64,000 nt of DNA from Nitrosopumilus sp. (GCA_965197525.1 OZ240211.1:1600001-1664000), one strand, 5' to 3'; shown: positions 47,731 to 52,003, counted from the first letter of the stretch. Notes: a model not told the origin generated them from the sequence alone. Made by a program: numbers and translations.

Positions 47731-48060
47731 ATGACGATTATTGGACACATGATGAAAAAAATCGATACTGACGTATCAAATATACAGCAAGGACTACAGC
47801 CCCAAAATCTCTCATATTGGTATGATAAAATTATCAAAGAAACAATTGATATGGTTCCTCCTTGGCTTGAGGATAAGATCAAAGTTCACCAGGATCCAAT
47901 TCTTCCAATGAAATTTAATCTTGATATCTCAAAACGTGCTGTTAGATATTTTATGATCGTCGTTGATAATAACTTGGATGCTATGCCTTACTCTACAAAG
48001 CTCTATTTTCTCAAAGTACAGGAAATAATGTCAACTGAGATGGATAAATCCCTAGTTTAG
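47731..48060 (+). CDS. Hypothetical protein
   Basis: 109-aa ORF co-oriented with coaD. Confidence 0.75.
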   Translation: MTIIGHMMKKIDTDVSNIQQGLQPQNLSYWYDKIIKETIDMVPPWLEDKIKVHQDPILPMKFNLDISKRAVRYFMIVVDNNLDAMPYSTKLYFLKVQEIMSTEMDKSLV

Positions 48061-48129
48061 TCTGGTTTACATATGGGTGTAATCAAACTCAAACTATCTA
48101 TATCCAATAAATCCTCAATTCATTGCAAC

Positions 48130-49014
48130 ATGGAATTTTACAAATCAAGAAATCTAGATAAAAAAACATCCAAGAGATACCCCAAGAGTGATAGAAGGCC
48201 TACTCGTTCCTTTAGAAATTCAAGAGATGACAAGCCTTCTAGCTATTCTCGTAATCATAACCGCACTGAACAATCCACAACCGTAGTCTGTTCTGATTGT
48301 GGTATAACGTGCAATGTTCCCTTTATTCCAAGAAATAGCAAACCTATCTACTGCAATGACTGTTTTAAACAAGATAGATTCAACGATTCCGATGACTCCC
48401 GCCACTCACGCGACAATAACAGCTCTAGGCATCGTAGTTATAACCGCACTGAACAATCCACAACCGTAGTCTGTTCTGATTGTGGTACGAAATGCAATGT
48501 TCCCTTTATTCCAAGAAATAACAAACCTATCTACTGCAATGACTGTTTTAAACAAGATAGATTCAACGATTCCGATGACTCCCGCCACTCACGCGACAAT
48601 AACAGCTCCCGCCACTCACACAAAAACGAATCAAGTAGTAGGTCCAAATCTAAGAAATTAACTGATAAATCTTTACAAAAACGGGAGCGTTTTTTTTCTA
48701 ACGGATCAGATAAATTCTATAAAACCATCCAAGAAAAATTATTTGAAATTTTGGGTGGTAAAATATGTTCTAATTGCGGCTTTAGAGATGAACGAGCTTT
48801 GAAAATTAGTTCCATATATGGCGATACACTAGATGACGACAACAACAAGCGTGGAACATTTGCATCTTCTCTAGGTAAATACATCTCTGACCCCAAGACT
48901 GCCAGAGATGAATTAAAGGTATTATGCTTGAATTGTAATCAAATCCGAGAACCTTTATCAAAACCAGATAAAGGCCATATAAAACCGAAAAAGAGTAAAT
49001 ATTTTCCTAGATGA
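48130..49014 (+). CDS. Protein with two CxxC-x17-CxxC domains and a C-terminal HNH-like Cys domain
   Basis: CSDCG..CNVPF.P....PIYCNDCF twice; CSNCG...VLCLNCN. Confidence 0.82.
   Translation: MEFYKSRNLDKKTSKRYPKSDRRPTRSFRNSRDDKPSSYSRNHNRTEQSTTVVCSDCGITCNVPFIPRNSKPIYCNDCFKQDRFNDSDDSRHSRDNNSSRHRSYNRTEQSTTVVCSDCGTKCNVPFIPRNNKPIYCNDCFKQDRFNDSDDSRHSRDNNSSRHSHKNESSSRSKSKKLTDKSLQKRERFFSNGSDKFYKTIQEKLFEILGGKICSNCGFRDERALKISSIYGDTLDDDNNKRGTFASSLGKYISDPKTARDELKVLCLNCNQIREPLSKPDKGHIKPKKSKYFPR
48257..48619. repeat. Near-identical tandem duplication, 183-bp period (coding)
   Basis: ataaccgcactgaac at 48257 and 48440; tgttttaaac at 48361 and 48544. Confidence 0.93.
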
Positions 49015-49208
49015 TATGTAAAATTTATCGAACATGTGTTAACATTTTAATGTCATTATTTTAAAACTAAATTATGAATGATGACTTTAAGGCAATTGGT
49101 GTATCTCTGATTATCATGGTTGGAGCTGTAACGTTATACGCTATGCTTGGTCTATAGATTTATTCTTGGTTCTGTGTAAACATCGGGACTTATTTTTAAC
49201 ATAAAAAA

Positions 49209-50525
49209 TTAAACCGCCAATGTTGACTTTGACATATCGACTATTTGGATTACCGTTCTGCTGGGTTCCAACATCGTTGACTCAAAAGTATCAAACTTTG
49301 CTTCACTTATGTCACCTTTACTATCCATAAACCTAGGGGACAGCTTGTTTTTTATATTTATGGGGGCTACTACATCCCTATCCATAAATAATCCACAATT
49401 ATCACACGACTTTTTACGACTGTATTGAACCTTGTCCTCTTGGAGTTTCTTTCCGCATTTTGGACAGTCCGTGCTCGTGTTTTTTGGATCTACGTTGTAT
49501 ACAGGAATACCATACCACTTGGCTTTGTACTCTACTTGTCTTTGGAATTCGTATTGTTGCCAACCGTTCATTTTACTTCTGTATTTTTTGCCTGTATTTT
49601 TGTATTTTTCATTGCCTTTGCTTTTTTTGTTTTTATTTTTTGTGTTGTTGTTTTCGTAGTTGTTTTTCTTTTTGTCTTTTGTAATATTTTTCCATTTTTT
49701 ACCTTTTGTGTTTTCTTTTGTATATCTTTTTTTTATTCCTCTTAGATCCTCTAATACTATAATTGTTTTATTTTTAACCGCTTCTTTTACAATATGATTT
49801 GATATTCTATGTGTTGATTGATTTGTTCTATTATACATTCTTTTATTTTTTTCTTCCCAAAAGTCACCTTTTACTCTACGATCATTTCTTCTAAATCCAG
49901 ATCTGGCTTGTATTGTATTTTTTTTAATTGATAATATTTTTTTAGTCTTGTAAAATACAACTTTTTTCTCATTTCCACAAGTTACATTTCTAAGGTTTCT
50001 GTCTATTCCTACTATATCAATACATTCTATTTCTTCTACTTGTTTTGATATACAAAAACTAATTGATTTATTATTCATTGAAAAAGATTGTACTTTTATA
50101 GTATCATTAGATAATATTTTTTGTGTATATTCTGCTAATAACACATTAATTGGATTTCTATTCTTATATGGAACTGTCATTAAACAACCATTATGTTTTA
50201 TGCCATAACAGTTTGTAATGAATGGTTTTTTTACAAATGGGTCTTTAACCTTAACACCTCTTTTTATTGATTGTTTTCTATTTGATAGTATACCTGCCGC
50301 CCTTGATATTGCATTTATTTTATATGAACCTAAAATATCATAGTGACGTAATTCATGATAACATAAATAAGATAATCGTTTCATATTATGTGTGTTTTCT
50401 TTTAGTCCTACTTTAATACAATAATTGACCATTTTTGTAAATATGTTCATTATTTCTTTCAAGTCTTCATTTGGTGTGTATTCTTGTTTAATTGATTTTA
50501 ATGCTTTATATTTTTTATTTTTCAT
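49209..50525 (-). CDS. tnpB: TnpB RNA-guided endonuclease, apparently intact
   Basis: RuvC-I GIDRN, RuvC-II LEDL, TSTDCPKCG and CDNCG..MDRD..A.INI motifs. Confidence 0.92.
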   Translation of the reverse strand: MKNKKYKALKSIKQEYTPNEDLKEIMNIFTKMVNYCIKVGLKENTHNMKRLSYLCYHELRHYDILGSYKINAISRAAGILSNRKQSIKRGVKVKDPFVKKPFITNCYGIKHNGCLMTVPYKNRNPINVLLAEYTQKILSNDTIKVQSFSMNNKSISFCISKQVEEIECIDIVGIDRNLRNVTCGNEKKVVFYKTKKILSIKKNTIQARSGFRRNDRRVKGDFWEEKNKRMYNRTNQSTHRISNHIVKEAVKNKTIIVLEDLRGIKKRYTKENTKGKKWKNITKDKKKNNYENNNTKNKNKKSKGNEKYKNTGKKYRSKMNGWQQYEFQRQVEYKAKWYGIPVYNVDPKNTSTDCPKCGKKLQEDKVQYSRKKSCDNCGLFMDRDVVAPINIKNKLSPRFMDSKGDISEAKFDTFESTMLEPSRTVIQIVDMSKSTLAV

Positions 50526-50550
50526 TTTATTATATTACTAAGATATTTTT

Positions 50551-50568
50551 TATTTAAACTCTTTTTTA
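50551..50568 (-). promoter_or_regulatory. BRE-TATA promoter of tnpB inside the element
   Basis: Minus strand aaaaaagag-tttaaata; the TATA box begins about 33 nt upstream of the ATG, consistent with a leaderless transcript. Confidence 0.55.
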
Positions 50569-50609
50569 GTAAATTATATCTGATAAAGTCCCGAAGATTA
50601 CACAGAACC

Positions 50610-50891
50610 TTATTCTTTAACCATTTCTACAACATTACCAATAATTGTAGTTGAAGTTAGTTTATGCTCTTTATCAGTTACTGATTGAATAAAATCAGCA
50701 AATATCTCTACTTCTTGTTCATTTTTCAGTAAAATACTATGAGCTGATTTATCTTTTAAAGAAATAATTAGTTCATTTTTTACTACGTTTAAAATTCCTA
50801 CAACATACGTCTCTTTTCCATCTTTAATGAATGTCAAACTTGCCAATTTTTGAGCTTCATATTTATCATCACATGTGATGCTAACCTTCAT
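50610..50891 (-). CDS. Hypothetical protein; its stop codon lies in the TSD
   Basis: 93-aa ORF directly downstream of trpS. Confidence 0.78.
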   Translation of the reverse strand: MKVSITCDDKYEAQKLASLTFIKDGKETYVVGILNVVKNELIISLKDKSAHSILLKNEQEVEIFADFIQSVTDKEHKLTSTTIIGNVVEMVKE

Positions 50892-50893
50892 TT

Positions 50894-52003
50894 TTATTTA
50901 TTCTCCAAAAGAAACTGTTCTATCTGTTCTTTTGCCTTTTCTCTTCTCTCTTGATGCACTGCAAGAAATTTGTTGATCTTTTCAATTAGGATGGCTTTTA
51001 TCTCACCTGAGAGTAATTTTCCTGACTTGTAGTCGTCATAAATTGTTCTCAATTTATTGTCATCTGGTTCGAAGAATATTCTTAGATACTGATAAGATAC
51101 ATCTATGTCTGGATTCCCACCAAGTTTTCTATGCTGTGTAATATCCTGCTGCCCTCCTGAGAATGCATTATTGATCTTCCTTTTTACCATATTAGGTGTA
51201 TCAGTTGTGTAAATTGTACCTTTTTGATCAGACGCTGACATCTTTCCTCCGGGTCTCTCCAATCCTGGGATCATTATATTGTGAATTAGTGCAGGTTTTT
51301 GCCTTCCAATCTTCGGTGCAATATCTCTTGTTAATCTAAAATGTGGATCTTGATCAACTCCCAATGGAATTAGAACTGGGTTATTCTCAATAAAGCATGG
51401 AGCAGACTGCAGTGATGTATAAAAGATCATTCCTAGATTCGTCTCATTCGTAAACCCAAACGTTGCTTTTGTATTTGAAAAGTTAATCTTCTTTGCCACT
51501 TGAGCTGCAATTGGATAAAGTGTTTGTATATTTTTTGTATCGATAATAATTTTTGTTTTTTCAGGTTTGAAACCTAGTGCAATAAAATCCAACGCATTCT
51601 CATATGCAAATTGTCTTGTATCTTCCAAAGTAAGATCAGGTTTTGAATAAAACTTTTCATCATCTGTTAATTGAAAATACATATTGACATCAAATTTTTC
51701 TTGTAGCCATCTTGCAAATACCCATGGTACTAGATGGCCAATATGTGTATGTCCTGAAGGCCCTCTTCCTGTATATAAAAAGAATTTACTACCTTTCTCG
51801 TATTCATCAATGATTCTATTCAACTCTCTGTGAGAAAAAAATACGCCTCTTTTGAGCATAAAATGGCCTTCTCCTGTAATTTTATTGATTCTTTTTAGTA
51901 GATCTGGCGATATTTTTTCAGTACCAAACCTTTTGATTAGTTTATCATAGTCAATATCGCCCTCAACGTGCCAAGGCGTAACAATAAAATCATCTGACGG
52001 CAT
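50894..52003 (-). CDS. trpS: Tryptophan--tRNA ligase
   Basis: YTGRGPS..THIGH, DQDPHFR and KMSAS motifs. Confidence 0.98.
   Translation of the reverse strand: MPSDDFIVTPWHVEGDIDYDKLIKRFGTEKISPDLLKRINKITGEGHFMLKRGVFFSHRELNRIIDEYEKGSKFFLYTGRGPSGHTHIGHLVPWVFARWLQEKFDVNMYFQLTDDEKFYSKPDLTLEDTRQFAYENALDFIALGFKPEKTKIIIDTKNIQTLYPIAAQVAKKINFSNTKATFGFTNETNLGMIFYTSLQSAPCFIENNPVLIPLGVDQDPHFRLTRDIAPKIGRQKPALIHNIMIPGLERPGGKMSASDQKGTIYTTDTPNMVKRKINNAFSGGQQDITQHRKLGGNPDIDVSYQYLRIFFEPDDNKLRTIYDDYKSGKLLSGEIKAILIEKINKFLAVHQERREKAKEQIEQFLLENK

Follow-up and report, generated by a model that had tools for sequence, protein, structure and literature searches.

A predicted TnpB omegaRNA that takes in the terminal inverted repeat of an IS6-like DDE transposon in Nitrosopumilus

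Comparative analysis of a tnpB element in Nitrosopumilus sp. makes it probable, in our judgment, that the terminus of an IS6-like DDE transposon has been fitted with a canonical TnpB omegaRNA, that its guide consists of the TSD plus flank, and that its empty site lies beside a TTR motif. The element is situated in a window of 64,000 nucleotides (GCA_965197525.1 OZ240211.1:1600001-1664000) taken from a host genome of 2.21 Mb (a single contig, 99%-complete). Positions are counted from the first base of the window unless given as genome positions, and the element and its features lie on the minus strand. A sequence-only reading of the window had proposed an omegaRNA whose guide would be aimed at the empty site; this interpretation is supported by comparison, each of its inferred points having passed an independent comparative test.

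The element is 1442 bp in length (49168-50609) and its sole gene is tnpB. It is bounded by TIRs of 24 nt, of which the left (GGTTCTGTGTAATCTTCGGGACTT, 50586-50609) is complementary to the right (49168-49191) at 22 of 24 positions, and an exact 8-bp TSD (AAGAATAA) is present at both ends. At the left end the flank reads TGGTTA followed by the TSD (50610-50617), so that a TAM-like TTA (50618-50620) stands directly 5' of the duplication; the right-end flank reads AAGAATAAATCTATAG. The orthologous site is empty in nine genomes of the same genus, in which the sequence is contiguous over the junction and contains one copy of the octamer. The anatomy of repeats, duplication and ORF, together with the empty allele, is thus confirmed, and stands well above chance.

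The insertion point is a gap of a few bases separating two convergent genes. On one side, a TAA within the left TSD forms the stop codon of a 93-aa ORF (50610-50891, minus strand). On the other, a 27-codon hydrophobic ORF (49074-49157, plus strand) has a TAG stop that falls within the predicted target; the region is 70-80% conserved across nine related genomes. Further along, a gene at 48073-49014 (plus strand) specifies a protein of 313 aa in which Pfam zf_Tbcl_2 (3.5e-27) identifies two treble-clef zinc-finger domains. Within it, a segment of about 185 nt is repeated in tandem almost perfectly (approximately 48220-48405 and 48406-48590).

The tnpB ORF (49209-50525, stop codon included) encodes 438 aa and matches both Pfam Cas12f1-like_TNB (9e-21) and NCBIfam guided_TnpB (9e-25). 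Alignment to ISDra2 TnpB (PDB 8bf8/8exa) places the RuvC-I aspartate in IVGIDRN, the RuvC-II glutamate in IIVLEDL and the RuvC-III aspartate in DRD; by the Pfam, NCBIfam and PDB alignments the protein is therefore a TnpB with a RuvC D-E-D triad and a zinc ribbon, as expected of an OMEGA nuclease. The zinc ribbon is separated from the RuvC-II glutamate by a region that includes a low-complexity insertion of about 30 aa rich in Lys and Asn (residues ~279-308; window ~49560-49700, minus strand), which is peculiar to this copy: none of approximately 34 paralogues (380-412 aa) carries one. The ORF does extend past the RuvC-III motif, as had been claimed, by about 51 codons rather than about 45; the TIR does follow the stop codon, at a distance of 17 nt rather than 16, and the element ends 41 nt from the stop.

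Which transposase moves the element is a separate matter. No match to a Y1 TnpA (Y1_Tnp) was found in the 99%-complete genome, and the TIRs and 8-bp TSD set the element apart from IS200/IS605 elements, which are defined by the absence of TIRs and TSDs, asymmetric hairpin ends and a Y1 TnpA. The genome holds eight DDE_Tnp_IS240 ORFs, and an autonomous element at genome positions 746475-748444 (1970 bp, perfect TIRs of at least 30 bp, 8-bp TSD) carries an intact DDE transposase of 378 aa. The first 18 terminal nucleotides of this element are identical (18/18) to the left end of the window element. The transposase, which has N-terminal SWIM-like and IS1/IS1595-like zinc-binding parts, scores above the cut-off for Pfam DDE_Tnp_IS240; its best NCBIfam match is transpos_IS6, at 102.8 bits against a cut-off of 125 bits. 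The hallmarks of IS6 elements are GG tips, a cTGTt motif in the inverted repeats and 8-bp duplications (PMC7986276), and all of these are found at the ends of the carrier. Since the genome yields no Y1 TnpA and the IS6-like ends are common to the autonomous DDE element, the tnpB elements appear to be non-autonomous riders on an IS6-like transposon. Two autonomous IS6-like elements (746475-748444 and 1956395-1960520; loci L079 and L080) have TIRs beginning GGTTCTGTGTAATC and exact 8-bp TSDs; in the second, of 4126 bp, a stop codon interrupts the transposase and additional ORFs are present.

The same genome contains approximately 35 full-length tnpB paralogues (60-68% amino-acid identity) and approximately 15 3' fragments. 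Left ends of the copies start GGTTCTGT, all copies terminate in CAGAACC, and flanks diverge immediately beyond. The 8-bp TSD agrees at seven or eight of eight positions in 19 of 26 full copies, and is exact in 18. The remaining seven (for example those at genome positions 182396, 296678, 428119, 599024, 617845, 642539 and 1568489) are without matching TSDs, and six of them retain (T/A)TR on the left. Exchange of flanks by recombination or by replicative transposition between copies would fit these mismatches and proves nothing; inspection by eye found no reciprocal or exchanged TSD partners among the TSD-less copies. Internal-deletion derivatives resembling MITEs (208-497 bp) occur at genome positions 143852-144348, 803351-803738, 870887-871264 and 1385894-1386101. 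All four have retained their left TIR together with the tnpB end that specifies the predicted omegaRNA, and each has an exact 8-bp TSD with TTA 5' of it: these derivatives thus transposed after loss of tnpB. Two MITEs that carry no omegaRNA motifs (genome positions 883991 and 572469) have no usable orientation. Within the Nitrososphaeria the TnpB clade is widespread, occurring in Nitrosopumilus, Nitrosotenuis, Nitrosotalea, Nitrososphaera and Conexivisphaerales; it was found in four of 80 other genomes of the genus, compared to an expansion to about 50 ends in this genome, while the DDE transposase family was found in 26 of the 80.

The predicted omegaRNA scaffold is approximately 179 nt in length (49168-49346) and comprises the last ~45 codons of tnpB, the stop codon, the spacer and the entire right TIR; its predicted structure is shared by relatives throughout the Nitrososphaeria. 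If an RNA is encoded here, then the end of the gene ought to carry the mark of a constraint in addition to that on the protein. When 25 paralogues are compared, the identity of synonymous codons ranges from 0.60 to 0.84 along most of the gene and from 0.83 to 0.93 in most windows of the last ~90 codons; over those same codons amino-acid identity drops. The short words that the sequence-only reading had described as scaffold-like (GTGAAGC, GGAACCC, GGTAATCC and AGTCGAT) are present in the window copy and are among the most conserved nucleotides of 52 related ends.

Two helices dominate the core. Stem 1 (GCUGUCC / GGAUAGU, 49320-49344) encloses an 11-nt loop and is paired in 99% of cells, with all six core pairs changed on both sides. 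A long-range closing stem surrounds the internal hairpins (49230-49314; UGACAUA at 49308-49314 with UAUGUCA at 49230-49236), is paired in 97% of cells and shows changes on both sides in six of its seven pairs: L188 has GAAGCAU/AUGCUUC at this stem, and many copies from Nitrosotalea and Nitrosotenuis have GCUUCCA/UGGAAGC. RNAalifold applied to 20 copies from this genome gave 32 pairs, ten of them with compensatory change. An alignment of 35 ends from this and other genomes was used to test the 7-bp stem 1 and the 7-bp closing stem: 98.6% of cells are paired, compared to 66% in column shuffles and 35-53% with slid partners, and 153 cells are double-changed, a level reached in none of 500 shuffles. 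With the pseudoknot (see below) included, 52 ends give 94% paired and 16 pairs with changes on both sides. A covariance model across homologous elements had been proposed as a check, and covariation is seen on both the 35 and the 52 ends; covariation and synonymous suppression together indicate a structured RNA that overlaps the 3' end of tnpB and extends to the right boundary of the element, as in OMEGA systems. A scan of 48000-51500 against Rfam (E up to 10) returned chance matches only.

Conserved structure at the end of a transposon might instead be a feature of DNA or mRNA – a transposase-binding hairpin, a terminator or an element of mRNA stability – and not a guide RNA. The left end also has potential to form a subterminal hairpin, and a control based on duplex energies did not separate left from right ends (partner windows were 70 nt and short hairpins were excluded; the control is given no weight). 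However, the helices lie 150 nt within the coding region and covary while the protein changes, the combination of stem 1 and a pseudoknot to the last bases of the scaffold is the architecture of the solved TnpB omegaRNA, and it is this end that the deletion derivatives retain. We regard the DNA or mRNA explanation as very unlikely and proceed with a guide RNA.

In the solved ISDra2 omegaRNA, as in Cas12 guide RNAs, the conserved core is a pseudoknot that joins an upstream region to the bases immediately preceding the guide (PMC10097598). If the scaffold here runs to the boundary of the element, then those bases are the tip of the TIR. The loops of stem 1 read GGUUU or GGUUC(UG), and are complementary to the terminal (CA)GAACC; in the window copy GGUUU (49329-49333) pairs with the last five nucleotides of the element (GAACC, 49168-49172), which form the 3' strand of the pseudoknot. 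The pseudoknot is thus formed by guide-adjacent scaffold bases, in keeping with the definition of OMEGA RNAs (PMC10097598). Each of the five core pairs can form in 51-52 of the 52 ends. Conservation of the CAGAACC tip is by itself uninformative, because the tip is also required by the transposase; the case for the pseudoknot rests on eight variant sequences that represent four compensated kinds. A tip of GAGCC or GGGCC is matched by a loop of GGCU(C) in L168, L188, L177 and L186 (pairing GGCU/AGCC), GAACU by AGUUC in L164 and L191, GAACA by UGUUC in L199, and GAGUC by GAUUU in L147. Changes on both sides occur at three of the five pairs, with switches from G-C to A-U or U-A and from U-A to C-G. 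L164 retains GGTTCTG at its left tip: the right tip alone is altered, and the loop compensates, a pattern that points to selection on RNA, not on the repeat pair. Left ends of the elements with variant tips were located for only some.

The inner part of the TIR appears to be taken up by a terminal hairpin (49179-49224), in which AACAUUGG (49217-49224), over the last codons of tnpB, pairs with CCGAUGUU (49179-49186), the inner half of the TIR. A strict motif search misses divergent ends. The stretch that separates the core from the TIR is too variable for alignment by MAFFT; the hairpin was consequently tested by anchor-based comparisons and by comparisons of cognate and non-cognate arms in a fixed register. 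In most relatives the segment directly after a conserved AAG(U) forms pairs with the TIR from position 8 on (8-13) and leaves CAGAACC free. Cognate arms give an average of 5.9 of 9 pairs against 4.7 for non-cognate arms (permutation P = 5e-5). In single-sequence folds the hairpin of the window copy is offset by 3 nt from that of most relatives.

These results bear on a further possibility, namely that the scaffold stops before the TIR and that the guide is fixed and internal (the variable stretch after AAAGUC), with the flank being without a role. The stretch that follows the conserved core does vary among subfamilies in a manner resembling a guide. Nevertheless, the stretch forms a hairpin with its cognate TIR, the last five nucleotides of the element are held in a covarying pseudoknot, and an internal guide provides no reason for TTR to occur exactly 8 bp outside the left end: an internal guide is therefore extremely unlikely. 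The earlier suggestion that the scaffold would have to include the TIR is borne out by both the hairpin and the compensated pseudoknot. Since the pseudoknot reaches the outermost bases of the TIR, the scaffold is predicted to contain the whole repeat and to end at the element boundary (~49346-49168), and the guide to begin at 49167. The predicted guide (AAGAAUAAAUCUAUAG, 49152-49167) comprises the right copy of the TSD (49160-49167) plus 8 nt of flank. That it should start at the first base of the TSD, as had also been suggested, follows from the reach of the pseudoknot to the last base of the element and from the position of the TAM-like motif, which abuts the TSD in the empty site; its length of 16 nt is taken by analogy from ISDra2 (PMC10097598). 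Predicted 16-nt guides are unique in the genome in 48 of 48 cases, and the 16-mer predicted here is unique in the genome.

A further prediction concerns the sequence outside the element. If the guide begins with the TSD, then a TAM must lie directly 5' of the TSD in the empty site and must be absent from the occupied right junction. We examined 35 independent insertions with TSDs agreeing at seven or more of eight positions: 19 full copies and four deletion derivatives from this genome, plus 12 insertions found elsewhere, in other genomes and other genera. In the triplet that directly precedes the left TSD, position -11 is T in 27, A in seven and C in one, position -10 is T in all 35, and position -9 is A in 18 and G in 17 (R in all 35). 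Thus (T/A)T(A/G) stands beside 34 of 35 insertions that bear TnpB or an omegaRNA, including TTA beside all four TSD-bearing deletion derivatives. Given a background frequency for TTR of 0.044, the binomial probability is P = 1e-22 (26 full copies from this genome). No base inside the TSD is conserved across the 35 insertions, and no mirror motif is found 3' of their right TSDs. TTR is situated exactly where the TAM must be, and the occupied right junction (which ends in GAACC) reads ACC in the same position; a motif 5' of the guide-matching sequence is therefore present in the empty site and absent at the occupied junction, as in OMEGA systems. The flanks had been read correctly, with TGGTTA before the target in the empty allele and CAGAACC in the occupied allele, and the TAM-like character of TGGTTA holds, its TTA fitting the family-wide motif. 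We infer that TTR is the TAM read by TnpB. The self/non-self logic is the standard logic of TnpB, and no new rule is called for.

Could TTR be a property of the transposase? Among six transposase-only relatives that share these tips and have clean TSDs, not one of the 12 ends carries the motif; the sample is small, and agrees with the earlier suggestion that the TAM is not supplied by the transposase. An alternative is that the omegaRNA is real but that TTR reflects an asymmetric target preference of the DDE transposase, to which the TAM of TnpB has adapted, as in IS605 and IS607. The TAM is indeed the target motif of the transposase in IS200/IS605 and IS607 (review PMC13565253), near-identical recent copies are already at TTR, such that choice at insertion is the easiest explanation, and DDE-only elements too are in T-rich flanks (TTT at four of 12 ends). 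Set against this is the comparison already given, (A/T)T(A/G) at 0/12 ends of DDE-only elements versus 34/35 for elements bearing TnpB or the omegaRNA, together with the fact that DDE transposases acting on symmetric ends usually yield symmetric target motifs, of which there is none 3' of the TSD. On balance we consider transposase preference unlikely, and retain TTR as the TAM of TnpB.

How the elements come to lie beside TTR might also be explained by selection after insertion. This seems too weak to place TTR beside nearly every recent copy, and later loss of insertions that lack a TAM seems too slow. IS6-type elements move replicatively and are not known to undergo excision; the usual benefit of restorative homing is therefore weak or not obvious. 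The bias would then stem either from an asymmetric preference of the transposase that is not seen in the six transposase-only elements, or from TnpB swaying the choice of target or the spread of the element. One form of the latter is that TnpB, or its RNP at the right end, helps to choose the insertion site, docking on TTR and steering the 8-bp staggered cut of the IS6-like DDE transposase to a position beside the TAM and in one orientation. We hold this to be rather unlikely.

The canonical reading, in which a standard TnpB omegaRNA sits on the end of an IS6-like transposon, would operate as follows. Having no transposase, the element would depend for its movement on an IS6-like DDE transposase supplied in trans from another locus of the genome. 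The RNA would begin about 45 codons before the stop codon of tnpB and would fold into stem 1, the closing stem round its internal hairpins, and the terminal hairpin; the 3' arm of the last would be the inner half of the right inverted repeat, while the outermost five bases would pair with the loop of stem 1. With the scaffold stopping where the element stops, the ~16 nt that follow, made up of the right-hand TSD copy (8 bp) and adjoining flank, would serve as guide once the transcript is processed. TnpB would bind the 3' part of its own transcript, with flank as guide, and by the ISDra2 paradigm (PMC8612924, PMC10097598) the RNP would be able to open a site only if TSD plus flank is preceded by TTR, as it is in the empty allele. 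The right junction would be spared because ACC takes the place of the TAM, and the left because only the eight duplicated nucleotides match. With cutting restricted in this way, copying of the element into empty alleles would be favoured.

Comparison with known systems places the element close to several and identical to none. As in the TnpB-omegaRNA of ISDra2 (IS200/IS605; PMC8612924, PMC10097598), there is a RuvC D-E-D triad and a zinc ribbon, an RNA that runs over the 3' end of tnpB to the right boundary, a pseudoknot between guide-adjacent bases and a loop ~100-160 nt upstream, and (here predicted) a guide derived from the flank and a T-rich 5' TAM in the empty site only. The two differ in that the carrier here has TIRs and an 8-bp TSD, whereas the ISDra2 type has asymmetric hairpin ends and no TSD; in the lack of a Y1 TnpA match in this genome; in that the first eight bases of the predicted guide are duplicated target; in that the TAM lies 8 bp from the left end and does not abut it; and in that the strand of the pseudoknot is also the tip recognised by the transposase.

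TnpBs associated with DDE transposons are already known, as are Fanzors. Altae-Tran et al. 2023 (PMC10691335) described DDE-associated TnpBs with inverted terminal repeats, solo TnpBs with the same ends, and a 3' end of tnpB near the end of the transposon. The present element resembles these in its TIRs, in a tnpB 3' end within 250 bp of the element end (here 41 nt from the stop codon) and in solo elements sharing ends with transposase-bearing ones (here 18/18 terminal nucleotides). Carrier families named for such TnpBs in that study and in a 2026 review (PMC13565253) are IS630, ISL2 and IS1031; the texts consulted do not describe an IS6-like carrier, the geometry of TAM and TSD, or the structure of the RNA. 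Fanzors, RNA-guided homologues of TnpB in eukaryotic TIR/TSD transposons (PMC3627910, PMC10530073; review PMC13565253), likewise have a DDE-type carrier and a guide RNA that passes through the TIR into the flank. There, however, the TAM incorporates the 5' TSD and the scaffold incorporates the 3' TSD, whereas in the present family the TSD is variable and the motif is external to it (-11 to -9), the pseudoknot reaches exactly to the final base of the element, and the 3' TSD is the would-be guide seed. As in IS6/IS26 (PMC7986276), the carrier has an 8-bp duplication, GG tips, cTGTt in its inverted repeats and a DDE_Tnp_IS240 domain in its transposase; it differs in the length of the autonomous partner, 1970 bp, and in its transposase of 378 aa, which bears N-terminal zinc-finger-like extensions and falls below the NCBIfam IS6 cut-off. 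The IS6 review (PMC7986276) does not mention TnpB and reports no carriage of tnpB by IS6 members, and TnpB together with Nitrosopumilus was not found in the literature searched. The covariation of the helices, the pseudoknot with the tip of the repeat, and the register of the guide, all as read from comparison of ends, were worked out in the present analysis.

At the level of sequence, the element suggests an answer to how TnpB can use a guide RNA on a TIR/TSD transposon: the repeat would be built into the scaffold, its tip would be a strand of the pseudoknot, and the duplication would be the seed of the guide. The family provides compact TnpBs from archaea, for which a short TTR motif is predicted and a scaffold of ~180 nt is defined. 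It also poses a puzzle, in that TTR accompanies the RNA-bearing elements, always in one orientation, but not the transposase-only elements that share their tips: the nuclease would shape either the insertion sites of a DDE transposon or, strongly, which insertions survive. Were insertion steered by TnpB, each new copy would be born with a working pair of TAM and guide, and this would be a natural case of guide-independent, TAM-directed transposition, linking a nuclease to a DDE transposase outside Tn7/CAST.
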